From positions 4,288,001-4,352,000 of the forward strand of contig CAVWLP010000002.1 in NCBI GenBank assembly GCA_963755915.1: a DNA stretch of 64,000 bases, given 5' to 3'. This document shows positions 5,746 through 48,032 of this stretch, piece after piece. The stretch comes from an uncultured Phycisphaerales bacterium. Its GTDB lineage: Bacteria; Planctomycetota; Phycisphaerae; Tepidisphaerales; Tepidisphaeraceae. Both the position numbers and the translations under genes were made by a program. The notes under the pieces were generated by a model that was not told the DNA's origin, made no database searches, and saw only the letters and a program-made list of their open reading frames with translations. The number at the start of each line of letters is the position of its first letter. The first letter of the stretch is position 1.

Positions 5746-7581
5746 ATGAACACGGACACAACCAGTCGCAGAGAGTTTATTAAGCTGGGTGTGGCTGTTG
5801 CCGCGGCGCCGTTACTGATCTCGGTCGGAGGGACGCGTGCCGCCGATTTACCGCTGACGCCGCCGGCGACGGCAGGGGCTGAGACAAAAATAAGATCTTT
5901 TGACTACAAAGGCGTGAAGCTCCTTGATGGAGCGATGAAAGACCGATACCAGGCCACGCGCGATTATTACTTTAACGTCCCGACCGATGACATTCTCAAA
6001 GGTTTCCGCCGCCGCGCGGGCCTCGAGGCCCCTGGAACGGACATGGGCGGCTGGGCTCAGAAAAACTCCGAGATTGTCTTCGGCCAGTGGCTCAGCGGCA
6101 TGTCTCGCATCTATGCCGGGACCCATGATGTGCCCATCCGCGATAAGGCGCTTGAACTCCAGGCCGAGTTTGCAAAGACACTCACAAATTTCAATTGCCG
6201 CCATTACGGATATGACAAGTTCGTCTGTGGTTTTGTGGATGTGGCGACGTTCGCCGACGATCAAACAGGCTTGCCGACGCTTGAAACGCTCACCCATTGG
6301 GCCGAAAAACATCTTGGCCGCAAGCGATTGCCCGCGACCGACGCTGACTCACAAGGCGGATTTTTCAACGGCGAGCTTGAATGGTATACGCTGCCGGAAA
6401 ACCTCTATCGCGCCTGGCAGTTCACCGGTAATTCACTCTACCGCGATTTCGCGGAGGTGTGGCATTATCCAGCCTATTGGAAAATGTTTGATGGCAGCGC
6501 CGACCCGGCCCCGAACGGGTTCCATGCCTACAGCCATTGTAATGCACTCAGCAGCCTGGCGATGACCTATGCCGTCACCGGCAATGCCTCGCTGCTGAAG
6601 TGCCTGGTCAATGCGCACGACTATTTCCAGAACACCCAGTGTTATGTCACCGGCGGATACGGCCCGGGTGAAAAGTTGATGGCGCCGGATGGGGCGCTGG
6701 GAGAATCGATCGTCATCGAGCCGAACAGGAAATATCTCGGCGGCAACATCGGCCGCTCGTTCGAGACGCCCTGCGGCACGTGGGCCATTTTCAAGGCCTG
6801 CGATTATCTGCTGCGGTTTACCGGCGAGGCGCGGTTTGGCGACTGGATGGAGCGCGGGCTTTACAACGGAATCGGTGCGGCGCTTCCAATGACCGGCCGC
6901 GGAACGACTTTCTACTACGCCGATTATCGTATGAAAGGTGCTGCCAAGAAGTATTTCGGCGCCGCCTGGCCCTGTTGTTCGGGGACATTCATTCAAAACG
7001 TCTCCAACTACCTCAACATGATCTATTACCAGGATGATCAGGGAGTCCTGGTAAATCTATATGCGCCTTCCGAGGTCACGTGGCAGCATGGGGGTACTGC
7101 GGTAACGCTCACCCAACGGACGGAATATCCCGCATCGGAACAGAGCGAGCTGAAGATCAGTGTTGACGCTCCGGTGGAATTCAGCGTGAGGCTTCGTGTG
7201 CCCTCCTGGGCTGAGGGATTGCGACTGAGCGTGAACGACGAGGCGATCAATGTTGCAACCAGGCCCGGCGAATGGGCGACCGTTCGGCGAAGGTGGGCTT
7301 CGGGTGATCGGCTGGCGGTGGTAATCCCTCTAAGGCCACGCCTGGTGCCGATCGACAAGCAGCACCCGGATCGTGTTGCCGTAGCGTGCGGACCGGTGGC
7401 GCTCGTGCATGTCGGCCAGGCTCCGGCGATTGCCAGCCGGGCGGAGTTTGGCAAGTTTGCTCCGGCCGAGGGAACTGCTATCCAATTGGTTTCGGCAGAT
7501 CAAGCGGCCGGCCAATTCATCCCATTCTTTCACGCCGCCAGGGGACAACACTACCGGCTGTACGTCGATCTTCAGGCCTGA
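5746..7581 (+). CDS. GH127/GH146-family glycoside hydrolase (beta-L-arabinofuranosidase-like), Tat-exported
   Basis: Twin-arginine signal SRREFIKLG; motifs HAYSH, ETPC and WPCCSGT; C-terminal 'LRVPSWA' beta-sandwich. Confidence 0.85.
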   Translation: MNTDTTSRREFIKLGVAVAAAPLLISVGGTRAADLPLTPPATAGAETKIRSFDYKGVKLLDGAMKDRYQATRDYYFNVPTDDILKGFRRRAGLEAPGTDMGGWAQKNSEIVFGQWLSGMSRIYAGTHDVPIRDKALELQAEFAKTLTNFNCRHYGYDKFVCGFVDVATFADDQTGLPTLETLTHWAEKHLGRKRLPATDADSQGGFFNGELEWYTLPENLYRAWQFTGNSLYRDFAEVWHYPAYWKMFDGSADPAPNGFHAYSHCNALSSLAMTYAVTGNASLLKCLVNAHDYFQNTQCYVTGGYGPGEKLMAPDGALGESIVIEPNRKYLGGNIGRSFETPCGTWAIFKACDYLLRFTGEARFGDWMERGLYNGIGAALPMTGRGTTFYYADYRMKGAAKKYFGAAWPCCSGTFIQNVSNYLNMIYYQDDQGVLVNLYAPSEVTWQHGGTAVTLTQRTEYPASEQSELKISVDAPVEFSVRLRVPSWAEGLRLSVNDEAINVATRPGEWATVRRRWASGDRLAVVIPLRPRLVPIDKQHPDRVAVACGPVALVHVGQAPAIASRAEFGKFAPAEGTAIQLVSADQAAGQFIPFFHAARGQHYRLYVDLQA

Positions 7582-7629
7582 AGGATCGCAAAAATCGCGA
7601 AACTTTCACTCAGCCGCCGCGTCCAAACC

Positions 7630-8596: not shown

Positions 8597-9214
8597 TCAT
8601 TCGCAGACAGGCAAGACCTCATGCCCGCACTCCGGACAGCGCTGGGGCGTTGCCCGCAGATCGTAGCCGCAGTTTGCGCAATAACCGGGATGCGCACGCC
8701 GATAGCGACGCCGCATCGAACCCCGAACAAATCTGGCGGGGAGGATCAGGCCGATGAGGATGATCGCCCAATCGGGGACGGAAACGGTTTGATAGGTCGC
8801 CTGGAGTACGTCATTGCTGGGAAGCCGTATCCAGGCTTTTCGAGCACTTTGAAGGAAGGAAGTTTTCATCGAGCCGAAGCCGCACCAGCACCACCCCTCG
8901 CCGGCAAGCAGGGTTTCCTCGTGACTGATGATGCTCGCCGCCTGGCCCGGGAAAAGATGGTGAAACTCATGCTGGATCGTCGTTGTGGCCGCCGAGGGAT
9001 CCAGCCGCAGATGCCGCGATGAATCCCGCGAAAGCACGATCCGTCCGCCGACGGATTCGATCATGCTGCTGGTGTCCACGAATTCAGACGTCTGGAAAAG
9101 CGTCACCCGATCCCACCAGCGGACACTTCGCCCCCAGAGCACAACCATCCCGATGCTCACCAGCAAAGAAAAGCTAGCGACAATCGAAAAAATAACTTTG
9201 GAAAAGCGTTGCAA
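8597..9214 (-). CDS. Membrane protein with C-terminal zinc ribbon
   Basis: Two hydrophobic segments and C-terminal CANCGYDLRATPQRCPECG; paralog at 60854-61513. Confidence 0.8.
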   Translation of the reverse strand: MQRFSKVIFSIVASFSLLVSIGMVVLWGRSVRWWDRVTLFQTSEFVDTSSMIESVGGRIVLSRDSSRHLRLDPSAATTTIQHEFHHLFPGQAASIISHEETLLAGEGWCWCGFGSMKTSFLQSARKAWIRLPSNDVLQATYQTVSVPDWAIILIGLILPARFVRGSMRRRYRRAHPGYCANCGYDLRATPQRCPECGHEVLPVCE

Positions 9215-9242: not shown

Positions 9243-10252
9243 CTACGGATTTACCGAAAGGGGCACCGGCGGCGCGAAAGTCCCGGAATACGCGCTCCAT
9301 CGCAAGGTCCACAGCTTTTCCAGCGGCACCGTTTCCACATGTTCATCCATGAAAACCATGTTCACGGCATTTCCATGCCGGGCGATGCAGAATCGTCCCA
9401 TCTGCCCCCAGTTGGGCCCGCGGGAGCCGATGCAGGTGTCGTAGCGGGCGCCTTCGCTCAGGTTCGTCGGCGGGTAATCCAAAATTGCGACGCCATTGAT
9501 TCGGCAATTCAGCGGCCAGGCTTCGTGCCAGTTGCAATCGCCCAGAACGGGAATCCGCGCGGATCGGCCGGCGGATGATGGCGGGTATCGAGGAAGAGCG
9601 ATCGCGGATCGACGCCGGAATAGTATTGAATGCCGCTGTAATAGATCGGGACAGGAACTGAGCCGACGGTTCCGGAGGCGTCGAGGTCGTAGAGCCAGCC
9701 GTTCATTCCATAGCTGCCGGCGATGAAATTGATGTCAGGATAAGTGCCGGGGCCCCAGGGCATATTGGCGCTGCCCCAGGCGCCGCCTTCGGCGCTGCTG
9801 CCACCGGTTGGCTCGCCCGGACCAATATTCGACGCGGGCGCTTCGGGGCAGAACCAGATCGACGGCAGGTTGGGCACGTAGGAAATCTGCTCGGCATAGG
9901 AGGGGTTTCGCGGGAGCCGATTGGGGGAATAGGGATTGGTGAATCCATTGACATACTGGCCCAGGGCGATCATCCAGAAGCCGCTGGGGTTGCCGGAGTC
10001 TCCCATCGCCATGCGGCGATGATCAGTGATAAAAGACTGGTAGGCCCACCCAAGCTGATGAAGGTTGGAGATGCAGCGGGTGGTGTTGGCGCTTCGACGA
10101 GCCTGACTGACGGTGGGGAGGAGGACGAAACCGAGGACTACCGCGACGAAGAGGATGACGACCAGTTCGACGAGAGTGAACGCTGGCGTGAAAGCGGGGG
10201 TTAAGCCGCGTGGGCGGTCAAGCCGGCATTTCCTCTGGCGCCAGAATTTCAT
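9243..10252 (-). CDS. Prepilin-type N-terminal methylation / DUF1559-like H-X9-DG protein (frameshift near 9500)
   Basis: AFTLVEL + hydrophobic helix + 'CISNLHQLG' in ORF 9509-10252; C-terminal RHGNAVNMVFMDEHVE in ORF 9243-9482. Confidence 0.8.
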
Positions 10253-10386: not shown

Positions 10387-10414
10387 TTACGTAAGAATTT
10401 TCTTGGATTGGACA
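10387..10414 (-). promoter_or_regulatory. Putative ECF promoter TGTCCAA-N16-CGTAA
   Basis: Minus strand reads TGTCCAA TCCAAGAAAATTCTTA CGTAA, upstream of the 10252 prepilin gene; one of four copies with identical spacing. Confidence 0.75.
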
Positions 10415-10545
10415 GGAAATCGGGAAAAAGTTGGGAATTAGAGGGATTTGTGGGGGCGGGGGACGCCCCGCAAGCGGGGCCGCTAAACATGGGGGAGGGG
10501 GTTCGGGGAGCTGAGGAATTTCCTTTTTGATTTCGCGCGATTTTG

Positions 10546-10572
10546 TGTCCAAATCATCTCCCATCCGCCGTT
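10546..10572 (+). promoter_or_regulatory. Putative ECF promoter TGTCCAA-N16-CGTT
   Basis: TGTCCAA ATCATCTCCCATCCGC CGTT, upstream of the PEP-CTERM gene at 10653. Confidence 0.75.
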
Positions 10573-10652
10573 GGTATCGTGTGGGCGTTCGCGACATCCG
10601 GATGCCAGGATGCGTCGAACTTCCCCGGCAAAAACAATTCTTTGGAGGCGAT

Positions 10653-11495
10653 ATGATCAAATTGGAGGGAAAGCTGGGGGTGAAATGGGGGGGAAAGCTC
10701 GCTTTGGGGACTTCAGTGCTGGTAATTGTTGGATGGACAGGCGTTTCCCACGGCCAGGTGATTAGCTGGGAGGAGGACGTTTACGGCACCGTCCCATCCA
10801 ACGGCTACGCCGGCGTCGTCAGCGTCGATAACTGGACCGATTCCTATCCGGCCAACCAGACCACCAACCTGCCTGACAACACGGGCGCTGCCACCACGCT
10901 CGATTTGCAGGAAGTTTCGCCCCAAAGCCTCACTTGGGCGATTCAGTTTGCCCACCCCGGTCAGGACGCCGACGGGACCTACAACAAGGAAATGCTCAAC
11001 GGCTACCTGAATGGCGGGCCCGCCGAATGGAATCCCAGCCCGCCGAACAATGGGGTGGTGCTGACGAATATCCCCTACTCCGAGTATGACATCTACGTCT
11101 ACATCTCCTCCGACACGGCCGGCCGGACCGGATGGGTCACTGATGGCGGCGTCACCCAGGGCGGAGCCGCCAACGGCGACGCCACCATGAGCACCTTCAC
11201 TCCCGACGGCGCCACCACCTACGATTTCACCACCATCGGCCCCGCCGAAATCAGCACGCCTGACGCCACCTTCCTTCAAACTACTGACACCCTCGGGCTA
11301 TACCCCGCCGCCGACTACGCCGAGTTCACCAACCTGAGCGGGTCGAGCCAGACGATTACGGTTCAGATGCTCGTCAACGACGACTGGGCAGGCGTCGCCG
11401 GGTTCCAAGTCGTCGCCGTGCCGGAGCCAATGTCGCTTAGCTCATTGGCCGTGGCGGGTGCGCTTTTGAGCCTGCGGCGTCGGAAAGCTAATTGA
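10653..11495 (+). CDS. Small PEP-CTERM protein (no dockerin module)
   Basis: GGAGG RBS before ATG 10653; signal peptide; ends VPEPMSLSSLAVAGALLSLRRRKAN. Confidence 0.88.
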   Translation: MIKLEGKLGVKWGGKLALGTSVLVIVGWTGVSHGQVISWEEDVYGTVPSNGYAGVVSVDNWTDSYPANQTTNLPDNTGAATTLDLQEVSPQSLTWAIQFAHPGQDADGTYNKEMLNGYLNGGPAEWNPSPPNNGVVLTNIPYSEYDIYVYISSDTAGRTGWVTDGGVTQGGAANGDATMSTFTPDGATTYDFTTIGPAEISTPDATFLQTTDTLGLYPAADYAEFTNLSGSSQTITVQMLVNDDWAGVAGFQVVAVPEPMSLSSLAVAGALLSLRRRKAN

Positions 11496-11621: not shown

Positions 11622-14272
11622 TCAAAGAGCAAATTGAGTCACTCGTTTTTTTGTCCTGCGCCTTCGCCAAGCCATTCCCGCCAGCATCGCTGCCCCAATT
11701 CCCATCGTCCCCGGCTCGGGCACTTCGTCCAATGCCAGCGTCCATTGCGACGCAATCGCCGGCGACAATTGCGCCGCCTGCGCTGACGTCAGCGGCTGGT
11801 CAAAATTCTCCGCCACCGCGACTAAATCCGCAAAATCCACCAAGCCGGTCGGATCATTCGTAAAATTCCCCTCCGCCCAGTCGTTGCCGGTGGTTTGCCA
11901 ATGCTGGGCGACGATCAGAAGATCGTTGAATCCGACCACTCCCTGCAAATCGGCATCGCCGAGAAGGGCATACTTGACGACAATCTGATCTGGGCCCGCC
12001 GGCGTTCCCGTGTCTGTGCTCCCATCTGCATATCCGATTCCGAAATGCGTTGGGTCGGCCATCGCGGCGCTGCTGGTGATCCCGGTGCCGTTCCAAGTGC
12101 CGCCGTTAAATCCGGAGATCAGCGCTTCCCGGATCGAAGCGATTGGAGATTGCCCGGCGGCATAGTTAATGACGAGCGTATTGGCCCCCACATCCAGCGT
12201 GCCGCCGGTAAGCGCCAGATCGTTCACGCTGAGTACCGTTTGCGACCCGGTTGCCAGCGACGCCTTCGCATTCGCCGGCAATTGCAGCGTATTGACGTTT
12301 GCCGAACTGGCGAAGGCTACGCTGGCGTTTGACCCGATATTGATGATCGACTGGTAAACCACATTCCCGCCGCCCGTCTGGACGATCGACATTCCCGAAT
12401 CGATCGTAATCGGATTGGCGATGATCAACTGTGCCCCCGTTGAAACATTGATCGTGGTATTGCTGGCGATGGTCATCGGCAGATTGATCTCCTGTGTCCC
12501 CGCCTGCACGATGATTTGCGCCGAGCCGGTGCTGGCCTGAAGCGTAAGCGAGCCCGCCCCGGTGATCTGATAGGTATTGGCATTATTGAAATTTAAGGTT
12601 CCGAGCGTCACCGGCGTGTCCGTATAAACCGTCGTTGACTGGGAGACTGCCCCAAAGAAATCCGCCTCGGCGCCTGCGGCGTTGGGGGCCGCGCCGCGGA
12701 GCCAGTTGTTTTCTTCGTTCCAATCGCCCGAGGCGTTTAAACCCCACTGCGGCGCCGGTGGCGGACCGGCGATGACAACCTCATACATCCCGGATGCGTC
12801 CGAATTCAGCGTCTGCGTGAATGTTCCCTCCCAGTTTCCAAGATCTGCGCCCGTCCATAGGTTTTTTACGTCATAGGCCGTTGTTGCGGAAAGACCGAGG
12901 CTGGCAAAGCTTACGCTCACCGACCCTGATGACGAGCCGGTGTTAAAGAGCGCCACATAATCGCTCGCGGAATTCGGGACCGCGGCTTCCCAGACGACTT
13001 GATTGTTGGCATTGGAAACCTGGTGATTCCCCAGGCTCGACTGATCTACCGCGAGTATCGCGCTGTTCGTTAGCAGTGAGGTCGTGAACGAATCGCTGGC
13101 CAGGCTGGGTAGATCTCCCCCCATAATCAGCGGCGAGCGGATGATCGACCAGAGGGTCATCACCGTCTGCTGCTGGTCCTGAGTCAGATCGCTGGAGCGC
13201 GCCGTCCCTACCGGTGGATTCAGAAAACTCCCCAGAGGCAGCATGTCGGCATCCGGCCAGTTGCCTGAGCCGGTGTTCGGATTGATCCCCTCATATTGCT
13301 CCCAGCTCGCCGCGGCCGCAAAGGCTGAGCTCACGTCGCTCCAGTTGTCCCACATGTCGTTCAGCATGCGCCACATGTTGGCGTCCTGTGTGAGTTGGCT
13401 TGCCTCGCTGAGCGGAGCCGGGCCGGGCGAGAGGCTGAGAACCATTGGCCGGCCTGACTGCGCAATGGCTTCCGCAACCCCGGCGACGTCCGCCGAGTGG
13501 TAGGTGGTGCTGAGCATGTCGTCGACTTTTACATAATCCACGCCCCAACTTGCGTACTGGTCGAAGATGGCGTCGTAATAATCCTGCGCACCCTGCGTGA
13601 GCTGTCCATTCGACCCGACATCAAGCCCCTGCATCTGGTTGAGCCACGGCGCTCCGGTGCCATTGCCTGCGGCAATTTCATCGGCCGTTACCGTGCCATT
13701 TGTTCCGGCGACCGGATCGTTGGCAAAGACCGCCTGCTGCGGAATTCCGCGCATGACGTGAATCCCAAAATCCAGGCCCAGGCTATGGCAATAGGCCGCC
13801 AGGTAGGCCATCCCATTGGTGTAATCCACGCCGTCCACGGTCCCGCCCGGAAACCGAGTCGGATCAGGCTCCAGCTCCCCGTTGGAATTCATCTCCAGCG
13901 GCGGGCTTGCCGTCGTCACGCCATGCTTCGTGGTAAACGCCTGCTGAAGATATCCCGATCCCGTTGTCCCCGACCCAAACGCCCCCTGCTGCGCCTGGGT
14001 CCAGGACCAGTCGTAATCGACGATGATGTATTTGTATCCGTACTGCGCGAGGTTCGCCGCCATGTAGTTGGCTTCCGACACCACTTCCGACTGCGTCACA
14101 AACGCGCCGTAAGAATCGTAACTGTCCCAGCCCATCGGCGGCGTCAGCGCTACCTGCGCCGCGCACCCGTCCCAAAAACCAACGAGAAAACCGCCGCGGT
14201 TAATAAACGCTTGCGCGGACCTGGAGAACCCGCCCCGCCTTTACCAGAAAAAATTCGAGCATCCAAAAACAT
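11622..14272 (-). CDS. GH27 glycoside hydrolase fused to stalk, diverged dockerin-like module and PEP-CTERM (signal peptide frameshifted near 14160)
   Basis: ALTPPMGWDS, DYVKVDD, WRMLNDMWD and WPDADML motifs; C-terminal ALLGDADLQG..VPEP-TM-RRRR. ATG 14272 gives MFLDAR...LLTAAVFSLVFGTGA in an adjacent frame. Confidence 0.85.
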
Positions 14273-14293: not shown

Positions 14294-15706
14294 TTATTCG
14301 GCGGAAAGCCGGAAGAGCCCCGCCCCGTGAAACCGAATCCCCGGCGCAAACTCGCCGTGAAATTCCCCCAGATCGCTATGCTTCCAAAGATCCCGCACGC
14401 GCACGCCGCCGCTGAATCCCAGATCGCTGAACTGCACCGGAACCTTCGCATCCGGCGGATCAACTGCCGCCACGACCGGATCCTGCGCGTTGAAGACCGC
14501 CAGATATTTATCCCGCGACCCCGGCACATCCGCCACCCAGGCGATCAGATCATCATGCCGAAACACCTGCCTCCCCGGCGTATCCCTCTGATCCACCGCA
14601 ATGACTTCATCATTGGTAATCAGCGATAGCGTAAACGCATCATTCTGCGGCAAGTTCCCCCCAAACATCAGCGGCGACCGGCAGATCGCCCACAGCGTCA
14701 TCACCGTATACTGCTCATCCGGCGTAAACTCCGTATGCCCCTGCCGGGGGGAACGAATCGCCCCCAGCGGGAGCATATCCGCATCCGGATAATGCCCCAC
14801 GCCGCAATACGGCACCCAATTCGCGCAGCGCTGAAATTGCTCCTTCAGCGGCGGCCAACGATCCCAGAAATCATCCGAAATCCGCCAGAGATTCGCATGC
14901 GTCGCAATATGCGCCCCGTCCGACAGCGGCGTCGCCCCTGGGGAGGTGCTGAAAACCATTGGCCGTCCGGAATGATCGATGGCGTTGCGAATCGCCTCGA
15001 TCTCCCCCGTGTGGTAGGGCCGGCTCAAATCGTCCACCTTCACAAAATCCACGCCCCACTGCGCATACTGCGCAAACAGCGAATCGTAATACGCCTGCGC
15101 CCCCGGCTTGGACGTATCGACTCCGTACATATCCGGATTCCACGGGCAAGTGCTGTTGATATTCGCGATATCCCGCGCACGAAGCGAGGTCCCCATCACC
15201 GGCGTATTCAGCTCCACCGCCTGCCGCGGAATCCCCCGCAACATGTGAATCCCAAACTTCAGCCCCAGCGAATGAACATAATCCGCCAGACCCTTGAACC
15301 CATTCCCGTTCCCCGCCGATGAAAACCGATTAGCCGCCGGCAGCAGCCTTCCATATCCGTCCATCTGCAGCCGCGCATTGGGGCGATAATCCCACCCATT
15401 CGCCAGCGGCTCATACCACTGAATGTCCACCACAATGTATTGCCATCCATGCTGCTTCAGATTCTGAGCCATGTAATCCGCATTGGCCCGCACCTGCGGC
15501 TCAGTCACCGCCGCCCCAAAACAGTCCCAGCTATTCCACCCCATCGGCGGTGTGGTTGCCCATTGATAAAACTGCGGTGAATCAGTCGCCATTTGATCGC
15601 CTGCCATAGCAGAATCAGTCAGAGCCTGGCAACAAATCAGCCCTACAGCCAGCGCCGCAAGGCATCGGCGAAAGTTTACCGGAAAACCCTCAAACGACTT
15701 AGGCAT
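14294..15706 (-). CDS. Secreted GH27 alpha-galactosidase / beta-L-arabinopyranosidase-like enzyme
   Basis: Signal peptide; TPPMGWNSWD, YIVVDIQWY, DFVKVDD, WRISDDFWD and PDADMLPLG motifs. Confidence 0.92.
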   Translation of the reverse strand: MPKSFEGFPVNFRRCLAALAVGLICCQALTDSAMAGDQMATDSPQFYQWATTPPMGWNSWDCFGAAVTEPQVRANADYMAQNLKQHGWQYIVVDIQWYEPLANGWDYRPNARLQMDGYGRLLPAANRFSSAGNGNGFKGLADYVHSLGLKFGIHMLRGIPRQAVELNTPVMGTSLRARDIANINSTCPWNPDMYGVDTSKPGAQAYYDSLFAQYAQWGVDFVKVDDLSRPYHTGEIEAIRNAIDHSGRPMVFSTSPGATPLSDGAHIATHANLWRISDDFWDRWPPLKEQFQRCANWVPYCGVGHYPDADMLPLGAIRSPRQGHTEFTPDEQYTVMTLWAICRSPLMFGGNLPQNDAFTLSLITNDEVIAVDQRDTPGRQVFRHDDLIAWVADVPGSRDKYLAVFNAQDPVVAAVDPPDAKVPVQFSDLGFSGGVRVRDLWKHSDLGEFHGEFAPGIRFHGAGLFRLSAE

Positions 15707-16901: not shown

Positions 16902-16928
16902 AACGGTTCCCGGCTGGGAAATTGGACA
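16902..16928 (-). promoter_or_regulatory. Putative ECF promoter TGTCCAA-N16-CGTT
   Basis: Minus strand reads TGTCCAA TTTCCCAGCCGGGAAC CGTT, upstream of the prepilin-GH27-GH27 run. Confidence 0.75.
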
Positions 16929-16999: not shown

Positions 17000-17027
17000 T
17001 GTCCAATTCCGATTCCCCCTGCCGTAA
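17000..17027 (+). promoter_or_regulatory. Putative autoregulatory ECF promoter TGTCCAA-N16-CGTAA
   Basis: TGTCCAA TTCCGATTCCCCCTGC CGTAA, about 50 bp upstream of the ECF sigma start. Confidence 0.78.
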
Positions 17028-17076
17028 TCAGCTGCCGCCGGACCCTTTGCTATGCCCGCGCGGCAAGGGAACCGTG

Positions 17077-17628: not shown

Positions 17629-17641
17629 GCAAAGGTCATCG

Positions 17642-39700: not shown

Positions 39701-40220
39701 CGACGCCTACTACCGCGTCCGCGTCGGACTCCAGTTCAACAAATCCGCCCACGACTTCGGCGCCTTCCCCACCGACCCCTATTCCCACACCCCCCTCGAA
39801 GGCGGCGCCTCCCAGCCCGGCATGACCGGCCTCGTCAAAGAAGAAATCCTCACCCGCCTGGGCGAATGGGGCCTGCGCATCAAGACTGGCCAAATTCATT
39901 TCACCCCACGCCTATTGCTCCGCAACGAACTCCTGGCAAAGCCCGCCACCTTCTCCTATTTCTCCCTGGCAGGCCCCATCGCCACCATCGACCTTCACCC
40001 CAACATGGCCGCCTTTACCTTCTGCCAAACCCCCATCGTCTACCGCGCCGACGAATCCGCCCCCGCTCTCTCCCTCACCGTCATCCGCACCGGCGGCATC
40101 CGTCACCACCTCGACGCCAGCACCCTCGGCCCCAAGCTCTCAACAGAAATCTTCCGCCGCACCGGCGCTGTCTCCCGCGTCGAAGTGACAATTCCATCAA
40201 AGATTCTACGCCCCGACTAA
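36735..40220 (+). CDS. Probable GH149 beta-1,3-glucan phosphorylase (cytoplasmic)
   Basis: 1161 aa with no signal peptide. Motifs FSRRHGDPSRPWN, YQGNWRDIFQNWEAL, IGYWGDHQIVYL, QRPEWNDANNAL and FPTDPYSHTP are recalled as typical of GH149; beta-1,3-glucanase neighbours agree. Confidence 0.78.
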   Translation: MTVSSTIRSLTSPADELEGFVLLDGVDMYRIPDFDRLPPFLIAVTSESDLWMYASSAGGVTAGRIDPDHAIFPYETVDRLHDSHGITGPQSLFRVSRPGHPTVLWEPLAIQNRSPLTTRNLFKNALGNRLIFEEIHHQLRMTFRFAWTTSTRWGFVRTARLINNDEDSPARVEILDGLLNILPAGVCLSMQQTLSSLVDAYKQSEIDPETGLAIYCLTSLVNDRPEPLEALTATTVWTRGLTGASILLRDDLRRAFRERADLHPTPRVNGRRGAFLIHHTAQLDPRQHLEWDIVCDADQDHRAVASTRALLRQDAQQIRSQIRDDCRRSEIGLLKIVAEADGLQFSGQKMACSHHLANVLFNSMRGGIPLDQGKIHAELFRQFVASRNLPVFRVHTDLLNNLPNSFDVPQLIEFAVAASVPDLSRLAHEYLPLFFSRRHGDPSRPWNLFAIHLRNPDGSARVDYQGNWRDIFQNWEALGVSFPSLIESFIAKFVNASTIDGFNPYRITSRGIDWEAPSPDHSFGHIGYWGDHQIVYLLKLLELSRDFHPNQLESCLTSEIYSYARVPYRLDTYSAIRRNPRQTILWDEALAAQIDRLVQEEGADGKLLRNHSGQVYHASLLEKLLVPLLSKLSNLVPGGGIWLNTQRPEWNDANNALAGFGLSVVTLAYLRRYVDFLQTLFATVKSEPFWLSAELVDWSMDVRRILALHQPILHSQTISPEARSAVIDELGFAFEHYRREVYPAGFSGKRTCEIDSLRELLALALRYIDHSLAANWRPDGLFHSYNLLELSERPNRASIRPMHEMLEGQVALLSSATADPARSISLIDAMFNSHLYRADQQTFMLYPIREIPGFLEKNIIPPAAARSSPLLSVLLASGANDIVCKDAAGVVRFNRDFRNRGNLQQALDLLSSDPAWKNLVARHGQEIAELYDKIFAHDAFTGRSGAMYAFEGIGCVYWHMVSKLLLAVQETFWRAVDSGATPSQIDALADAYYRVRVGLQFNKSAHDFGAFPTDPYSHTPLEGGASQPGMTGLVKEEILTRLGEWGLRIKTGQIHFTPRLLLRNELLAKPATFSYFSLAGPIATIDLHPNMAAFTFCQTPIVYRADESAPALSLTVIRTGGIRHHLDASTLGPKLSTEIFRRTGAVSRVEVTIPSKILRPD

Positions 40221-40343: not shown

Positions 40344-41471
40344 CTAAAGATTTCCCACCCGATGCCCCTTCCGATACGCCGTCGGCGTCATCGCCAGATG
40401 CTCGTGAAATACCGTGCTAAACCTCACCCCGCTGGCAAACCCCGATTGCTCCGCCACGTCCGGGATCGGCAGGCTCGTCTCTCGCAGCAGCTTGCACGCC
40501 CGGTCCAGGTGTACCCGCCGAATCTCATCCAGCAGACTCCTCCGCATGACGCGCTTAAACCGCCGCTCCAGGTTCCGCCGGCTCATCGCCACTTCTTCCA
40601 GCACGTCCTCCACGCTGATTCGTTCGTTGGCCCGCCGCCGGATAAACTGCGCCGCCTCCGCGACCACTTCATCCTCGATGCTCATCACGTCGGTCGAGTG
40701 CCGCGTAATCACCCCATTCGGCGGAATCTCCATCGGCGACCCTTTCACCGATTTTCCGTTCATCAGGTCCTCCAGCATCTTCGCCGCGGCGAACCCCACC
40801 CGCTCGGCCCCCAGCTCGATGCTCGACAATGTCGGCCGCACCATCTCCGTCAGAAAGACGTCGTTGTCCACCCCCAGCACCGCGATCTCCTCCGGAACCG
40901 AAATTCCATTCTCCCGGCAGATGTCGATCGCATGCCATGCATACCGGTCGTTCGCCGCCAATATCGCGCAAGGCCGCGGCAGCGACATGATCCAATCCCG
41001 CGAAACAACATCCACCTCCGTCGAAGCGCTGAAGAAAGCTTTTTCCCCCCGGCACTCGGCCCCAAACGCCTCCTGCCGCAGCTTCGACCACGACGCCGTC
41101 GGATGCCCGCAAAATCCGAACGAGCGGAACATCCTTTCCCAGAAATACTCAAACGCCATCTTCCCCACCGCCGCATCGTCCGGCAAAACCGTCGGGACCT
41201 TGGCGGCCTGAAGCTGCCGAGCCGATAGCGTCCGCGCCGCGTTCACCATCGGCACCTTCCCCTTCTTAAACCGCTCGATGCTCCGCATCCCATGCACCAT
41301 CGCGATGATCCCATCCGCCCCGCCCGTCTGCGGCGTCTTCGACGAGAGCGAATACATCGGCGGCATGATGAACTCCCAGTCCGCCCGCAAGTTCGCATAA
41401 GCCATCACCCCGCGCAGCACCCCCCTGCCGTAACTGCCCGCAAACTCGACCTGGATTCCGATTCGAATCAT
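40344..41471 (-). CDS. XylR-family transcriptional regulator (periplasmic-binding-protein-like sensor + AraC HTH)
   Basis: SYGRGVLRGV, AILAAND, IAVLGVDND and PTLSSIEL motifs; C-terminal SRRNLERRFKR..A..LL.ET...VAEQSGF..MTPTAYR. Confidence 0.9.
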   Translation of the reverse strand: MIRIGIQVEFAGSYGRGVLRGVMAYANLRADWEFIMPPMYSLSSKTPQTGGADGIIAMVHGMRSIERFKKGKVPMVNAARTLSARQLQAAKVPTVLPDDAAVGKMAFEYFWERMFRSFGFCGHPTASWSKLRQEAFGAECRGEKAFFSASTEVDVVSRDWIMSLPRPCAILAANDRYAWHAIDICRENGISVPEEIAVLGVDNDVFLTEMVRPTLSSIELGAERVGFAAAKMLEDLMNGKSVKGSPMEIPPNGVITRHSTDVMSIEDEVVAEAAQFIRRRANERISVEDVLEEVAMSRRNLERRFKRVMRRSLLDEIRRVHLDRACKLLRETSLPIPDVAEQSGFASGVRFSTVFHEHLAMTPTAYRKGHRVGNL

Positions 41472-41476
41472 GTGGA

Positions 41477-41504
41477 TGCCGCAAAACGTTTAATTATTTA
41501 CGCA
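41477..41504 (+). promoter_or_regulatory. Putative XylR/AraC-type operator in the divergent regulator/prepilin promoter
   Basis: TGCCGCA AAACGTTTAATT ATTTACGCA; TAGTAT -10-like hexamer at 41537. Confidence 0.75.
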
Positions 41505-41612
41505 AAATAGCGTCACACCCCCCCTTTGGCAAATCGTAGTATTCGTGCGTCGCCCCTAAGGCGGCGGCACACGTTTTCTGGGCGACATACGCAGGCGGCT
41601 GAGGAAACAAAT

Positions 41613-42611
41613 ATGAGTCTCGACTATGCAACGCGGGTAAGCGCTCGATCAACTGCAATCCAATTCCCCGCAAATTCCCCGAAACCCCGCCCCGCCTTTA
41701 CGCTCGTAGAACTTCTGGTTGTTATTGGCATAATCGCTATTCTCATTGCCGTTCTACTGCCGGCGTTAAACAGGGCCAGGGAACAGGCAAACTTGATCAC
41801 CTGCCAGACCCACCTTCGCCAGATAGGACAGGCCATTCTGCTTTATACGATAGACAATCAGGGATACCTCCCCTTCGGCTACAGCAACGGCGCCTCAACC
41901 CCGTTGGGTGCAGCAAATAATAACAATGCATCAGACTGGAGTACCCTGCTAATTAATGAAATGTCGTCCAATCACGGTAATACGTATGGCACGCAGGGCA
42001 CCGGAGCCTTGAGCTTCAATCGAGGCGTCTTCCTGGACCTCGACACGCCGGGAGTCGGAGACGCCCCTCTTAATTACTCCTGCCACCCTCGGCTCATGCC
42101 TAGCCTAAGCGACCGGGACGATTACAGAAACCCCCCTATTCAAGCGGAGAAGATCACCCTGACTCCGTACAAGCTCGCTCAGGTTCAGCGGTCCTCCGAA
42201 ATAATTCTCATCTTCGACGGGGTACTTTGCACCACTAACGGAAGCGATAATGACTTCCATTATTTCGGTGCCGCGTCTACCGGTTACGCAATTGACGACT
42301 ACCGCCTATATCAAGTACCCGCAGGCGAGCCCGGCTACACGCTGGAGCAAAACGCCACCTATCTTCTCTTCAATCAATGCGGCACAAATGGAAGCCCCAT
42401 CGATGCCGGCACCAATATGGACGATCCGAATGACATAAGCCAGGCCTTTCCCAGTGAGCCTACGCAGGTAGGATTTCCAAGATTCCGTCACATGGGCAAC
42501 AAGGTGGGAAATTTCCTCTTCTGTGACGGCCACGTCGAGTCTCGAGCTTACAAGAGCCGATACCAAAACGAAATCCTCAGGCGAAACGTCAACGTTAACC
42601 TGAATCCCTAA
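41613..42611 (+). CDS. Prepilin-type N-terminal methylation / DUF1559-like protein
   Basis: [35 protein letters not shown]-terminal RH...[10 protein letters not shown]. Confidence 0.92.
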
Positions 42612-42777
42612 ATGATCACGCCGGAAAATTAACTTACTGATTCCACCGCCTCTCCCTTTTCTATATCAAAGCCCCCGGCGCACCAGACCACCTAGTGCGT
42701 CTCTCATTCCCGGAAAACCTTCCCCGATTTCCCCTTCTTCCCCTTTCCCGCATCAAATTTCTCCCTTTGCGTCTTCA

Positions 42778-42805
42778 TGCCGCATTCCATTAAATGATTT
42801 ACGCA
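42778..42805 (+). promoter_or_regulatory. Putative XylR/AraC-type operator
   Basis: TGCCGCA TTCCATTAAATG ATTTACGCA upstream of the PEP-CTERM gene at 42909. Confidence 0.75.
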
Positions 42806-42908
42806 AAATGGGATGGTGATCCGCCTGAACTGCCTTATCTTATCCGTCGTACAAATCGCTCCGGGCTGGCACCCGCAGCAGGTCATTTCAAACACTTGGA
42901 GGAAAGAG

Positions 42909-43628
42909 ATGCGAGGCCCAATCTTCTCACGTACCGCGTACCTTACGGCCGCCGCTCTGTTCGCTTTCGCGGCACGCTCCCATGCGGCTATCGTCACCGT
43001 CAGCTCGGCAACCATGACCGACGCCTACATGGCCTGGACACCGCTGCCCGGAAACACCGTTGGCGGCGCCAGCGCCGGCGGCTGGAGCGTCGGCGCACTC
43101 GACGCCAGCTTCGACGTCACCGGCGAAACCGTTACCGTCAGCCCCAACACCAATATCGCCGACACTGCTGCCGGTAGCACCTACTGGTTCATCGGCGGCA
43201 ACACCAACGACCCCGGCCAGCTTATGGACGCCAGCCTCTACGCCGAAGTCGACAGCATCACCGACCTCAATTGGACCTTCAACTACAACGTCCTCTCCAA
43301 CACTTTCCAGTTTCCGCCAATGACCTCCTCCAACGCCTTCATCAAGGCCTTCGCTCCGGGCTATGCCTACATCGGCGAAGTCGACGCGCCATTGACCGTC
43401 GGCACGGGCAGCCTCACCTTGAATCCCTCAACCCCCGGCTTCTCCAGCCTCGCCGCCGGCGACATCATCCAGTACGGTTTTGAAACGGTCGGCCCCGACC
43501 TGACCGACAGCGCCGCTGCCGCCGCAGGCAACGCCGTCATCACCGCGGTCGTCCCCGAGCCAACCACCTGCACAATCCTGCTCGGCCTGGCGGGTGGTTA
43601 TCTCCTCCGGAGGAAACGGACTGCCTAA
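42909..43628 (+). CDS. Small PEP-CTERM protein (no dockerin module)
   Basis: GGAGG RBS; signal peptide (..RSHA); ends VPEPTTCTILLGLAGGYLLRRKRTA. Confidence 0.88.
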   Translation: MRGPIFSRTAYLTAAALFAFAARSHAAIVTVSSATMTDAYMAWTPLPGNTVGGASAGGWSVGALDASFDVTGETVTVSPNTNIADTAAGSTYWFIGGNTNDPGQLMDASLYAEVDSITDLNWTFNYNVLSNTFQFPPMTSSNAFIKAFAPGYAYIGEVDAPLTVGTGSLTLNPSTPGFSSLAAGDIIQYGFETVGPDLTDSAAAAAGNAVITAVVPEPTTCTILLGLAGGYLLRRKRTA

Positions 43629-43704
43629 AATAGGAATTGTCTTCAGCCGTTGAAATGTAAGTCGCGTGTTTCCAAAATTTGTTTCAGGAAGTTCGCAACC
43701 GAAT

Positions 43705-45527
43705 ATGTACTCGCATGCGACTCGTCTCCGGCTGGCCTTCGTTCTCCTGGCCGTTGCAGCTATTTCGCCCTCCTACGCTGCCTCGGACCCGGACGCCCCC
43801 TCACACGTCCAGCTCCGCAAGACCGACAACGGCTGGACGATCCTCCGCGAAGGCCAGCCCTTTTTCATCCAGGGCGCCGGTGGCGACGGTTCGAGACAGC
43901 TCCTGAAAGATTGCGGCGGGAACTCCTTTCGCCTCTGGGGAGCGGATGACATCGGGCCCCAGCTCGACGAGGCACAACGCCTGGGGCTCGCTGTCACCGT
44001 CGGCATCTGGCTCGAGCACGCCGGTGGGCCAAACCACTTCGACTACCACGACCCCGCCCAGGTCGCCCACCAACTCCAAAAAGTCCGCGACGCGGTAGAG
44101 CGCTACAAAAATTACCCCGCCGTTCTAATCTGGTGCGTCGGCAACGAAATGGAAGGCTACGCCGACGGTGGTGATCCCGCCGTCTGGAAAGCCGTCGAAG
44201 ACGCTGCCGCCGCCATCCATCAGCTCGACCCCAACCACCCCACCATGACCGCTATCGCCGAGATCGGCGGCAAGCGCGTCCCCTCCATCAATCAATATTG
44301 CCCCGACATCGACATCATCGGCGTCAACACCTACGCCGGCGGCCCCTCCCTCGCCTCCCGCTATCGCGCCATGAACCCAACCAAGCCCTTCCTCATCACC
44401 GAGTTCGGCCCAGCCGGCACTTGGGAAGTTCCCCTCAACTCCTGGGCGCTCCCGTCGAACCCACCAGCACCGCCAAGGCGGATGAATACCGCGCCACCTA
44501 CGAAAACTCCGTTCTCCCCGAAAAAAATCGCCTCTGTCTTGGCTCCTACGCCTTCCTCTGGGGAAACAAGCAGGAAGCCACCGCCACCTGGTTCGGCATG
44601 TTCCTCCCGGATGGCACCCGCCTCGAACCCGTCGACGCCATGACCCAACTCTGGACCGGCAATCCCCCGCAACAACATTGCCCGCGCCTCCAGCCGATTT
44701 TGGTTGATCACGCCGACGCCAACCCCGGCCAAACCATCCACGCCACCCTCGACGCCACCGACCCGGATGGCAACCCGCTCATCGCCCACTGGGTCCTCAC
44801 CCGCGACGCCGCTGTCTACAAAACCGCCGGCCAATTCCAGGCCGCTCCCAAAAGCCTTCCCGACGCCATCCTCTCCGCCGACATCCGCACCGCGCAAATC
44901 CGCATGCCCACGAGCCCCGGCCCCTACTGGCTCTACGCCTACGTCTACGACGGCCACGGCCGTGCCGCCACCGCCGTCGCCTCCCTGCGCGTTCACGAGC
45001 CATCCGCGCCGTCATCAGGCCACTCCGTCCAGCTCCCCCTCGTCCTCTATTCCGACGATCCCCATCCTCCCACCTTTGTCCCCTCCGGCTGGATGGGCGA
45101 CATCCCCTCCCTCGCCCTCGACGAAAAATGCACCACCTCTCCCCACGCCGGCGATCACTGCCTCAAATGCCAGTTCAAATCCGACACCGGCTTCGGTGGA
45201 ATCGCCTGGCAGAATCCCCCCAACGACTGGGGCGATCAGCCCGGTGGCTTCGATCTCACCGGCGCAACCAAGCTCACCTTCTGGGCCCGCGGCGAAGAGG
45301 GTGGTGAAGTCGTCTCCTTCAAGCTCGGCATCCTGGGCGAGGGCAAAAAATTCCCCGACTCCGACCATGCCGAGCTTCCCGATGTCTCCCTCACCCAGGA
45401 CTGGAAACAATATTCCATCGATCTGGTCGGCAAAGATCTCTCCCGAATCAAAACCGGCTTCGTCTGGGTCACCACGGCCACCGGAAAACCCGTGACCTTT
45501 TACCTCGACGAGATTCAGTACGAGTAG
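43705..45527 (+). CDS. Secreted clan GH-A TIM-barrel hydrolase (GH158/GH2-like) with C-terminal CBM-like domain (frameshift near 44445)
   Basis: Signal peptide; 'GQPFFIQGAGG..GGNSFRLWG'; acid/base WCVGNE; nucleophile ITEFGP; C-terminal 'LTFWARGEEGGE..FYLDEIQYE' beta-sandwich. Confidence 0.78.
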
Positions 45528-45532
45528 ACGTT

Positions 45533-48032
45533 ATGTTCACAAATACCGGACAGAAAAAGACAAATTCCAATCCCGATAAAACCCGGCGCGGCGACTTCAG
45601 TCGCCGTGTCTTCGCAAACTCCACAAAGCGCCGCGCCAAACTCTTCTCTAACGCCATCGAACCCCTCGAATCCCGCTTCCTCCTCACCGCCGCCCCCACC
45701 ACCGTCAACGCAAACAACGGCTCCACTCCCACCGACATCCAGGTCACCTGGTCCGGCGTCTCCGGCGCAACCGGCTACCAACTCTGGCGCAACTCCTCCG
45801 CCACCACCAACGGCGCAACCGAAATCGCCTCCAACGTCTCCGGCACTTTCTACGACGACACCAATCTCACCGTCGGCAACAACTATTACTACTGGGTCAT
45901 CACCAACGCCTCCGCCGGCAACAGCGGCTTCTCCACCATCGCCAGCGCCACCGCCGGCACCCTCGTCTTCAACGACACCTTCGGCGCCACCGGAATCTCC
46001 TCCGCCTGGGGCAAGGAAAACACCACCGACCCAAACAACCCCGACGTCAATTACGTCAACAACTCCACCACCCTTTATCTCACCAGCGATCCCAACGCCA
46101 CCGATGGCGAAGCTCTGGCCATGTCTCTCTACCCCGTCAACAATTCCACCTCCGATTACGACTCCGCCGAGATCAGCACCCGCGTCGATCCCTCCAACGT
46201 CGCCAACAACCTCGAATACGGCGAAATCGAGGCCCGCATCCAACTCCCCGGCGGCAACGACTCCGCCGCCATCTGGCCCGCATTTTGGATGCTCGGCACC
46301 GACATCTCCTCGGTCGGCTGGCCCAACTGCGGCGAAATCGACATCATGGAAAACGACGGCGCCTACCCCGGCACCAACGACTCCACCCTCCACGGCCCCC
46401 AGACCGGCCAGACCGACGGCTACAACGGCGGCGACGGCGTCGGATCTTCCTTTACCCTCCCCGGTAATCAGGATTTCTATTCCTCCTTCCACACCTTCGC
46501 CGTCAATTGGGGACCCAACTTCTGCACCTTTTCCATCGACGGCAACGTCTTCGCCACCATCACCCCGTCCAATCTCCCTTCGGGCGCCACCTGGGCCTTC
46601 AACGGTCACCCCTTCTACATCATCCTCGACGTCAACGAGGGCGGCAGTTTCGCGCCCGGCAACATCACCAGCGAGCAAACCATGTACGTCGACTGGGTGC
46701 GCGCCTATAGTTTTTCAGCGCCGACGAATCTTGTCGCCTCGGTTGCCACCAGCAGCAGCCCGGCTCACATCTCGTGGGCCGCGGTAACCGGGGCGACTTC
46801 TTACGAGATCTGGCGAAATTCCTCCAATAACTCATCAAGCCCACGGAACTAAACGGCAACGTCACCACCACCAGCTACAACGACACCAGTGCCACCGTCG
46901 GCTCCAACTACTACTACTTCATCGTCGCGGGCAACGCAGCCCAAACCAGCAACTATAGCGCCGGCATCGAAACCCGCCTCACTCCCACCGTCACCATCGC
47001 GACGCCCCCCAGCTATATCGCCTACGATGGCACAAGCGATGTGACGAATTGGGCCACGGCGACCCTCACCGGCGTGAGCGGAAAACCTGCTCCCACCGGC
47101 TCGCCAACCCTCGCCTGGTACGCCGGCTCAACCGACACCGGCACACCGCTCAGTTCCCCCCCAACTAATCTCGGCATCTATACCGTCGTCGCCAACTACG
47201 CCGGCGACACCAACTACGTCCCCACCCAAAGCGCCCCGACAACATTTACGATTCAAAACCCCGTCGGCCTCTCCACCAGCGCCGGGGCAGCCTACAACAT
47301 TACCTGGTCCTCGGGCATCCCGAGCTTAAATGTCACCGCCGGCACCATCACCCTCTCGCAAGACCTCTCGACGACTTTCCCGAATTACAACCTCTCCATC
47401 AACACGAATTCCACGGTCGTCCTGAACGCCACCCAGCACCTCGGCGCCTCGTCCTCACCGGCGGCACCATCGACATCAGCTACTACTCCTTCTATATCGA
47501 TTACGGCTCCAATTCCGACCCTATCGCCACCATCGCCGGCTACATGCAAACCGGCTTTAACCAGCAGCGCTGGACCGGCCAGGGCGGCATCACCTCCTCC
47601 GCCGCCGCCGCCAACCCCTTCGTCTACGCCGTAGGCTACGCCGACTTTAACGACCCGGGAAATCCCGCCAACCTCCCCTCCGGCACCATCTATGTCCGCT
47701 ACACCCTTCTGGGCGACGCCAACCTCGACGGCACGGTGAACGGCTCCGACTTCTCGATCGTGGCCGCCAATTTCGGCCTCGGCGTCACCAACTGGGACGA
47801 AGGGAACTTCCTCTACGGGAGCTCCGTCAATGGGTCGGACTTCTCCGCGCTGGCCTCCAATTTTGGGCAGGGAGTGAGTATTCCGGCGGCTGTTACGCCG
47901 ATCGTCGAAGCTCCTGCCGCAACCAACGCAACGGCATCGACTTCTACGTCGTCCACATCCTCTCAAAGCACGGCGGATCAGACGCTTCACAAGGCGAAGG
48001 GCGGGCACGCAACCGACCGGTTGCGGCACTGA
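45533..48032 (+). CDS. GH16 laminarinase-like multidomain protein with LEPR-XLL-like N-terminus, FN3-like repeats and dockerin-like C-terminus (frameshifts near 46835 and 47450)
   Basis: IEPLESRFLL; WPAFWMLG..WPNCGEIDIMEN catalytic motif; two 'W..V.GAT.Y..WRN' FN3-like units; TLLGDANLDG module; no PEP-CTERM tail. Confidence 0.82.

Follow-up and report, generated by a model that had tools for sequence, protein, structure and literature searches.

The beta-1,3-glucan locus of Bacteroides encodes a SusC-like TonB-dependent receptor, the SusD-like surface glycan-binding protein (SGBP) SGBP-A, SGBP-B, glycoside hydrolases (GH) of families GH16, GH158 and GH3, and a sensor-regulator. Planctomycetota are major polysaccharide degraders and have very few TonB-dependent transporters. 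Here we analyse a stretch of 64,000 nucleotides (C2:4288001-4352000 of a 6.63-Mb genome in three contigs; hereafter the window), the proteins of which have homologs named in sources as proteins of Tepidisphaeraceae or Phycisphaerales metagenome-assembled genomes. It carries two sets of carbohydrate-active enzyme (CAZyme) genes, locus B (34.4-48.0 kb) and locus A (9.2-21.3 kb), each accompanied by genes for pilin-like proteins of the H-X9-DG/DUF1559 type and for small PEP-CTERM proteins. Judging from the DNA alone, we find it very probable that these pilin-like and PEP-CTERM genes are co-regulated with substrate-coherent CAZymes, which makes them concrete candidate genes for polysaccharide capture or import in planctomycetes.

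The players of macromolecule uptake in Planctomycetota are described as unknown in reviews (PMC12673574), and planctomycetal CAZyme clusters are called functionally uncharacterised, with 30-34% of genes unassigned (PMC11131199). DUF1559 proteins form the largest paralog group of Planctopirus limnophila, again described as of unknown function (PMC10632474). The 'fishing-rod' hypothesis (Boedeker et al. 2017) holds that planctomycetal pili emerging from crateriform structures take up polysaccharide, and the passages that treat it present the pilus 'fishing' of polysaccharides as a hypothesis drawn from dextran uptake (PMC12078418, PMC12673574). In a search of the literature outside subscription journals we found no paper linking H-X9-DG/DUF1559 pilins to glycan loci. 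What is new here is that specific DUF1559 pilins and PEP-CTERM proteins are tied to defined substrates via unique, conserved cis-elements.

In locus B the intergenic regions before three genes, encoding a PATR-PEP-CTERM protein, the prepilin pre3 and the small PEP-CTERM protein sPEP2, have in common TGCCGCAAAAC-TTAAA-N2-ATTTACGCAAAAT, and the core TTAA-N2-4-ATTTACGC occurs three times in the 6.6 Mb of the genome, each time in locus B. The complete element spans 36 bp and consists of two CGCAAA-type repeats 21 bp apart (direct repeats CCGCAAA and ACGCGAT in operator 1), its end lying about 100 nt 5' of the likely start codon. A position weight matrix (PWM) built from 13 sites, three near-identical sites of the related genome G124 being left out, gives the three window sites, all on the plus strand, 50.8 bits (operator 1, 34443-34478), 58.1 bits (operator 2, 41476-41511) and 54.5 bits (operator 3, 42777-42812), and the next genomic sites 26.6 and then 16.4 bits. 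The layout appears compatible with a dimer site of an AraC-family protein, and such a regulator is encoded in the locus (40344-41471, minus strand); it joins a periplasmic-binding-protein-like sensor of XylR type (PF13377, 110.1 bits) to an AraC helix-turn-helix (PF12833, 71.1 bits) and is divergent from pre3. As operator 2, in the intergenic region between these two genes, abuts the regulator's own start codon, the regulator is probably autoregulated.

Three units follow the operators, all on the plus strand. The first comprises a protein of PATR beta-helix repeats that also has a dockerin-like module and is anchored by PEP-CTERM (34554-36494; PF12951, PF07589; Dockerin_1 21.8 bits) and a GH149 beta-1,3-glucan phosphorylase of 1161 aa (36735-40220; NF058639 1406.8 bits, cut-off 1150), an open reading frame (ORF) that Pfam leaves unnamed and that the earlier note on this DNA did not recognise; having no signal peptide, the enzyme is presumably cytoplasmic. 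The second unit is pre3 (41613-42611), which exceeds the cut-off for the prepilin motif PF07963 (27.1 bits, cut-off 21.2) and falls below that for PF07596, the DUF1559 family (20.0 bits, cut-off 23.3), a match that many of its close homologs carry as precomputed annotation. The third comprises sPEP2 (42909-43628; TIGR02595 18.6 bits, cut-off 16), with a predicted beta-sandwich resembling a carbohydrate-binding module (CBM), a GH158 endo-beta-1,3-glucanase with a C-terminal beta-sandwich domain (43666-45527), formerly called 'GH2-like' and identified through its ortholog in the genome G118 (PDB GH158 structures 9oro, 2.3e-82, and 6pal, 4.7e-54), and a laminarinase-type GH16 with fn3, Ig-like and dockerin-like modules (45533-48032; PF00722; PDB endo-beta-1,3-glucanase 2vy0, 3.2e-34). 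This content supports reading locus B as a coherent beta-1,3-glucan regulon, and laminarin, named in the tests that the earlier note proposed, matches its enzymes. At the sole other operator-like site of the genome (C2:4253930, 26.6 bits), a paralogous XylR-type regulator (C2:4259739) is found at a distance of about 6 kb, with a prepilin 215 bp from that regulator; the site is possibly the diverged operator of a sister regulon.

The reading frames of GH158 and GH16 are broken in the window. The assembly contains single-base homopolymer errors, and over 41.4-48.2 kb the short-read contigs of the runs X1 and X2 are identical to the window except for one extra G behind each of 44443, 46840 and 47447, the exact sites of the three breaks. 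The single-G deletions that split GH158 and GH16 thus stem from long-read sequencing of homopolymers, and since the extra G is present at all three sites both are single intact genes, in agreement with the orthologs in G118, which run in one frame. Pseudogenisation of the two genes is thereby rejected. At 48030-48110 the in-frame stop of GH16 is followed in the same frame by a PEP-CTERM-like tail (VPLP, a hydrophobic stretch, KQVRR); as the short-read contig shows no difference across this stop, the enzyme may have lost its anchor while retaining the dockerin-like module. The prepilin pre2 and the N-terminus of the anti-sigma factor of locus A (near 17730) are also split in the window and whole in the related genome G115. 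Many further genes of this genome and of G124 look split in six-frame searches.

Locus A appears to be controlled by a different device, an extracytoplasmic function (ECF) sigma factor and its anti-sigma factor. The motif TGTCCAA-N16-CGT, which we take to be a typical ECF -35/-10 layout, has seven matches genome-wide. Locus A accounts for four of them, all of which are intergenic and point at a gene, namely pre2 (10389-10414, minus), sPEP1 (10546-10571, plus), pre1 (16903-16928, minus) and, as for autoregulation, the sigma gene itself (17000-17025, plus). All four positions are kept at orthologous places in G115, in which blocks of locus A are rearranged and the flanks have diverged. The upstream motifs shared by prepilin, PEP-CTERM and regulator genes, as claimed in the earlier note, were thus recovered in both loci, by three operators of three in locus B and four ECF sites of seven in locus A, a concentration well above what chance would give. 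The sigma factor (17047-17628, plus; PF04542, PF08281), divergent from pre1, belongs to the Rhodopirellula/Verrucomicrobium subfamily (TIGR02989 167.1 bits, cut-off 124.55). It is followed by the anti-sigma gene (17644-19351, plus; ORF 17903-19351; PF04773, PF08305), in which FecR and a C-terminal NPCBM domain are recognised; its G115 ortholog is a single ORF of 567 aa with an N-terminal anti-sigma segment, one transmembrane (TM) segment at about 120-145 and periplasmic FecR and NPCBM domains. A PEP-CTERM protein with a dockerin-like module comes next (19397-21265, plus; PF07589; Dockerin_1 19.8 bits, below cut-off) and still adjoins the anti-sigma gene in G115.

On the minus strand an operon runs from 16856 down to 11622 in the order pre1, GH27, GH27-PEP-CTERM. 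The prepilin pre1 (15732-16856, ORF to 16985; PF07963 27.6 bits; N-terminal matches to GspG and TIGR02532), ending in H-X9-DG, probably starts at the ATG at 16856, downstream of the promoter; PF07596 does not match it. The first GH27 (14294-15706; PF16499) is of the beta-L-arabinopyranosidase type, carries a signal peptide and matches the Abp beta-L-arabinopyranosidase in the PDB (4nx0, 4.3e-154), and the second (11622-14135; PF16499, PF17801, PF07589) joins the catalytic domain to a long region of beta-strand repeats and ends in a PEP-CTERM anchor. The divergent pair pre2 and sPEP1 stands at lower coordinates of the window. The former (9246-10252, minus), a paralog of pre1, is read in two frames (9509-10252 and 9246-9734), both ORFs being prepilin matches in phmmer; it has a prepilin motif by regular expression and a weak ComGC match, and it is probably intact in reality, its G115 ortholog being one full-length ORF. 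The latter (10653-11495, plus; ORF 10527-11495; TIGR02595 19.7 bits, cut-off 16) is a small PEP-CTERM protein without a dockerin-like module, its start placed at 10653 or alternatively 10602 and its signal peptide judged by eye. A GH127/GH146-like beta-L-arabinofuranosidase-type enzyme (5746-7581, plus; PF07944 92.8 bits, PF20736; PDB 5opj, 1.7e-23, and the GH127 4qjy, 5.5e-20) has neither shared motif, so that it is at most a candidate member of the regulon. Together these form an L-arabinose-glycoside enzyme set, which supports as substrate a glycan bearing beta-L-arabinopyranoside such as arabinogalactan, the other substrate named in the tests of the earlier note. A small protein at 8597-9214, with an N-terminal TM helix and a zinc-ribbon-like CxxC...CxxC end, stands 3' of pre2 here and, with 46% identity, in G115.

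All elements that the earlier note had described, regulators, prepilins, small PEP-CTERM genes and CAZymes, are present in both loci, and two of its labels need adjustment. The H-X9-DG signature holds for pre1, but pre3, which scores 17.3 bits with TIGR04294 (cut-off 19), is a spacing variant with H-X11-DGH. Likewise, the dockerin modules find sub-threshold support in Dockerin_1 matches of 16.5-21.8 bits in three of the four C-terminal modules tested, but none rises above the cut-off of 22.9 bits and the GH27-PEP-CTERM protein gives no match at E<=1.

The association extends beyond the window, and prepilin genes neighbour PEP-CTERM genes, GH genes and XylR-type regulators much more frequently than under random placement. 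Searching with the three pilins by phmmer yielded 66 ORFs that merge to 61 prepilin genes, of which the Pfam DUF1559 model in six frames, with 21 matches, is an undercount. For the association tests we relied on raw ORFs and on family searches in six frames, and not on a codon-usage gene caller, which missed for instance the second ECF sigma factor of the window. The GH families were fixed before the neighbourhoods were viewed (GH43, GH5, GH2-TIM, GH29, GH16, GH10 and GH127, with GH13 as control). With the window excluded and random gene positions as null, 12 of 39 GH genes have a prepilin within 3 kb, against a null mean of 2.6 and a maximum of 9 in 2000, and 14 of 39 have one within 5 kb (null mean 3.9); collapsed into loci, the count is 10 of 30 within 3 kb (null mean 2.6, maximum 9 in 3000), and for the GH13 control 0 of 4 within 5 kb. 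XylR-type regulators are found within 250 bp of a prepilin in 4 of 12 cases outside the window (null mean 0.28, P=2e-4) and in 5 of 13 with it. Outside the window, 21 of the 58 prepilins have within 500 bp a PEP-CTERM ORF that is 100 aa or longer; with the window, 23 of 61 do, against a null mean of 5.4 and a maximum of 14 in 1000. Twelve prepilins have a small PEP-CTERM ORF (150-370 aa, no dockerin-like motif) within 1.2 kb, and these twelve proteins show no detectable mutual homology.

Pfam annotation of seven more regions revealed six further loci that repeat the pattern (GH10, GH5, GH16, GH53/GH2, GH44). In one, an ABC (ATP-binding cassette) permease, a solute-binding protein (SBP), GH44 and a small PEP-CTERM gene stand beside a prepilin followed by GH10, BNR_4 and a regulator; in another the small PEP-CTERM gene is beside a prepilin and GH5, then XylR and GH1. 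The remaining four comprise a small PEP-CTERM gene beside a prepilin with GH16-CBM4_9 and GH35; XylR, prepilin, PEP-CTERM gene and three GH16 genes in a row; a prepilin amid two GH53 and two GH2 genes; and a polysaccharide-lyase-like small PEP-CTERM gene and a prepilin, next to a transporter of the major facilitator superfamily (MFS). A glycan island at C3:1170000-1204000 (L036, L037) holds four prepilins, two GH53 and two GH2 genes, an MFS transporter and Nramp, along with genes for a DDE transposase and for the reverse transcriptase of a group II intron.

Among 140 other genomes of the order, nine have an sPEP2 homolog, and when the genus of the present genome is counted the protein is found in 6 of 76 genera. 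The nine loci around them contain a pre3 homolog (7/9), GH158 (7/9), GH16 (8/9), GH149 (5/9) and the regulator (6/9), and in other genera (G010, G079, G066) the genes have changed places and strands; G036 has the regulator and an sPEP2-GH16 pair and nothing else of locus B, and G091 has sPEP2 alone. The operator is present in all six loci with a regulator ortholog (L013-L018), absent from the two without a regulator (L019, L021) and found as a variant in L020 (G091). Including the window there are 16 sites in eight genomes, always 5' of orthologs of pre3, sPEP2 or the PATR-PEP-CTERM gene. A search of the relatives with the regulator as query returned four close loci only. Close orthologs of sPEP1 occur in G124 and G115 only; five distant sPEP1-like contexts (L023-L027) contain no other locus-A homolog and no prepilin motif, and locus A is therefore conserved within the genus only. 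The pilin-like and small PEP-CTERM genes thus stand as integral, co-regulated members of the regulons, as claimed at the outset, in a pattern that recurs genome-wide and across genera.

As had been stated before, neither locus contains a SusC/D pair or an importer. Family searches found no TonB-dependent receptor, ABC or MFS family in 5746-48032, in which the sole multi-TM ORF has five TM segments (30349-31080), and no PF00593, Plug or SusD among 54 window ORFs; the genome has three TonB-dependent receptors, none of them in the window. The PWM scan of the whole genome found no further operator, which excludes only importers under the same operator. As the XylR-type sensor and, presumably, GH149 are cytoplasmic, oligosaccharides must cross both membranes, and import over the inner membrane must use a transporter outside the regulon. 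Since other prepilin loci carry ABC or MFS genes, the pilin would not be the inner-membrane importer and would serve at most in the outer-membrane or capture step. An ORF of 453 aa at 61899-63257, outside both loci, is matched by neither Pfam nor NCBIfam; with its ten or so TM-like segments it may encode a transporter that has gone unrecognised. Elsewhere the genome has secretins at four loci, six or more full-length GspE/PilB ATPases, one prepilin peptidase and, by three PF09721 matches, three exosortases.

Based on these data we propose that in locus B the cytoplasmic XylR-type AraC regulator would bind the 36-bp operator, and that in locus A the FecR-type anti-sigma factor would sense periplasmic glycan from the membrane via NPCBM and free the ECF sigma factor, which would then read four promoters, those of its own operon, of pre1 with the two GH27 genes, of pre2 and of sPEP1. 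The small PEP-CTERM protein, anchored by exosortase, would bind glycan at the cell surface as an SGBP does, and the prepilin would be a substrate-specific subunit loaded on type IV filament machinery encoded elsewhere. Together they would capture glycan fragments and carry them over the outer membrane, the step taken by SusC/D in Bacteroidota; transporters outside both loci would complete import over the inner membrane, to be followed by GH149 phosphorolysis in the cytoplasm. Such a role in capture or uptake is the explanation that fits best, and we see about as much reason to believe it as to doubt it. More tentatively, and with doubt outweighing belief, we suggest that H-X9-DG/DUF1559 pilins, each paired with its PEP-CTERM protein, may serve a retractile type IV filament as exchangeable adaptors for cargo, each specific for a ligand, in a general TonB-independent system of outer-membrane uptake for polysaccharide fragments and cobalamin that would replace SusC/D and BtuB in Planctomycetota and allied phyla. 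If the uptake role is true, it would mean a new nutrient route over the Gram-negative outer membrane and a new annotation rule for loci resembling polysaccharide utilisation loci (PULs) outside Bacteroidota.

Cobalamin enters this proposal through a riboswitch. B12 riboswitches classically control acquisition or biosynthesis, and the one cobalamin riboswitch match of the genome (C2:2584901-2585107, 73.3 bits) is followed (C2:2584901-2588899; L039 2902-6900) by a PEP-CTERM gene, a PATR-containing ORF and an H-Xn-DGH prepilin, with no TonB-dependent receptor or btuFCD downstream in L039. The single riboswitch matches of G115 (L041) and of G141, a genome of another family (L040), likewise stand directly before PEP-CTERM and prepilin genes, with intergene gaps of 4 and 14 nt. 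The locus mirrors the non-enzymatic part of regulon B, a PATR protein, a pilin and a small PEP-CTERM protein. It is here that the strongest competing explanation loses ground, namely that the prepilins are substrate-specific pseudopilins resembling those of the type II secretion system (T2SS), which would export the co-regulated PEP-CTERM and dockerin-like enzymes and binding proteins through a secretin and import nothing. Their best N-terminal matches are indeed GspG-type pseudopilins, NCBI calls homologs 'type II secretion system protein', 23 of the 61 prepilins have a PEP-CTERM ORF within 500 bp, secretins and GspE-type ATPases are encoded in the genome, and to our knowledge the way in which PEP-CTERM proteins cross the outer membrane is not known. 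However, the riboswitch stands before PEP-CTERM and prepilin genes in all three genomes examined that have such loci, which favours acquisition over enzyme secretion, and no enzyme cargo is evident there. Moreover, 38 of the 61 prepilins are without an adjacent PEP-CTERM gene, and we know of no T2SS pseudopilins that are cargo-specific or regulated by the substrate of their cargo. We regard export as unlikely, though not negligible.

The predicted structure of pre3 bears on a further possibility, that the H-X9-DG proteins, once processed by prepilin peptidase, stay unpolymerised with their N-terminal helix in the inner membrane, bind oligosaccharides in the periplasm and hand them on, either to importers of ABC or MFS type or to a sensor, for instance the NPCBM anti-sigma factor. 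Pfam files the family as SBP_bac_10, the head, at about 280 aa, far exceeds the heads of major pilins in size, some prepilin loci have ABC (SBP and permease) or MFS genes, and filament machinery is absent from the loci. The AlphaFold2 model (46 homologs, pLDDT 81.9), in contrast, comprises a long N-terminal helix, a C-terminal sheet and a large unmatched insert between them, without a periplasmic-binding-protein fold; its top 19 matches (Z>=2.4) are all pilins or pseudopilins, and weak ones, with 6xxd at Z 4.6 and EpsG and PulG also among them. Foldseek retrieved nothing from the PDB at E<=1e-3, and a sequence search of the PDB matched the N-terminal pilin helix only. Across pre3 and 45 aligned homologs F+1, E+5, H293, D305 and H307 are invariant (46/46), and an invariant N-terminal helix with Glu +5 is typical of pilins that assemble. 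The ABC locus L032, moreover, comes with a classical SBP. We judge a hand-over function in the inner membrane improbable, more so than export. Least probable of all is that the co-regulated pilins and PEP-CTERM proteins merely fix the cell to polysaccharide particles or to plant or fungal walls while oligosaccharides enter by unrelated porins, a reading favoured by co-regulation with extracellular endo-glucanases, by the soil-metagenome labels of the public runs that contain the stretch and by adhesion being the commonest role of accessory type IV pilins, but one that leaves the riboswitch-controlled pair unexplained and, with a periplasmic NPCBM sensor and a presumably cytoplasmic GH149 implying the entry of sizeable oligosaccharides, has no TonB-dependent receptor available for it.

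Capture and uptake by the pilin and its small PEP-CTERM partner thus remains the reading that we prefer, and several of our results weigh against it. No fold of a lectin, CBM or solute-binding protein is recognisable in the pilin head, pilins alone matching it at Z<=4.6. For sPEP2 the AlphaFold2 model (pLDDT 78.1) is a beta-sandwich with CBMs as best matches, to 2c4x (rmsd 3.3 over 129 aa) at Z 8.7, which according to the tool is a level common for unmatched models, to the CBM15 1gny at Z 7.2 and to Bacteroides SGBP-B at Z 5.5; no Pfam CBM matches it, and in the ESM Atlas it retrieves unnamed Planctomycetota PEP-CTERM clusters only. Neither regulon has an inner-membrane importer, so that the system as described is incomplete, and ABC or MFS importers are present at some of the other prepilin loci. 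No ATPase of type IV pili or T2SS, secretin or prepilin peptidase was found in the window, the platform protein not having been searched. The genome-wide association is partial, 27 of 39 GH genes lying more than 3 kb from any prepilin and the majority of prepilins having no PEP-CTERM ORF within 500 bp; its nulls ignore island structure and its GH counts cover the seven families only, and the PEP-CTERM and prepilin inventories come from regular expressions and phmmer on raw ORFs. Related genomes are not independent, and we therefore take the conservation of the loci as footprinting and not as statistics. Finally, the expectation that pilin sub-clades would track substrate was not borne out among the paralogs: in a quick tree of 43 prepilins, star-like and with long branches, the three GH16-linked pilins that it includes do not group.

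The two loci had been described as independent clusters. They are two regulons, but a block of further PEP-CTERM/PATR genes at 19.4-29.5 kb joins them within one island. The proteins encoded in this run (19397-29512), of PEP-CTERM, PATR and RicinB-LamG type, have in common a C-terminal module of 300 nt, present in five copies in the window, and the glycine-rich repetitive ORFs at 26173-29512 are without family match. Beyond them, at 29640-31080, lies the second ECF sigma factor, with a long C-terminal extension (340 aa), the end of which is overlapped by the ORF at 30349-31080, whose five TM-like segments have no family match.

Compared with the PULs of Bacteroidota, the loci share the substrate-specific and self-contained regulon, the pair of GH16 and GH158, a surface-anchored non-catalytic beta-sandwich protein (as predicted for sPEP2) and a dedicated sugar-responsive regulator, and the ECF sigma/anti-sigma pair of locus A has its like in many PULs. 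They differ in that SusC and SusD are missing, all three TonB-dependent receptors of the genome being elsewhere, and a pilin-like gene fills a slot that has no assigned function. Anchoring is by PEP-CTERM and exosortase here and by lipidation there, and a presumably cytoplasmic GH149 is found where Bacteroidota have a periplasmic GH3. The anti-sigma factor, moreover, has a carbohydrate-binding domain of its own in place of signalling by a TonB-dependent receptor. Locus A resembles FecIR signalling, with an ECF sigma gene followed by that of a FecR-domain anti-sigma factor with one TM helix and with an autoregulated promoter; unlike FecIR it has no TonB-dependent transducer in the window, and the NPCBM domain at the periplasmic end of the anti-sigma factor suggests direct sensing of the ligand.

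Among filament systems, the competence type IV pili and pseudopili with minor pilins that bind a ligand, such as Neisseria ComP (PDB 5hz7, among the structural matches), likewise combine a pilin fold with a specialised head, and the route from filament to secretin that we propose would be shared with them as a path for macromolecules. The ligand, however, would be a glycan or B12 and not DNA, and the pilins are some 61 divergent paralogs under substrate-specific control, encoded with catabolic enzymes and not with machinery. To the T2SS pseudopilins (GspG-K) the likeness lies in the N-terminal prepilin signal and helix, which match best, and in a core weakly like PulG and EpsG, whereas the head is about twice as large and ends in a conserved H-X9-11-DGH, and the genes are highly multiplied, scattered in catabolic loci and regulated by substrate. 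A related proposal is the 'fishing-rod' of Boedeker et al. (2017), in which pilin-like proteins would attach to intact polysaccharides and draw these into the periplasm. As described in the passages on it (PMC12078418, PMC12673574), it names no genes, whereas in the present loci cis-regulatory evidence links particular pilin genes to particular substrates, and PEP-CTERM proteins join the pilins as partners.

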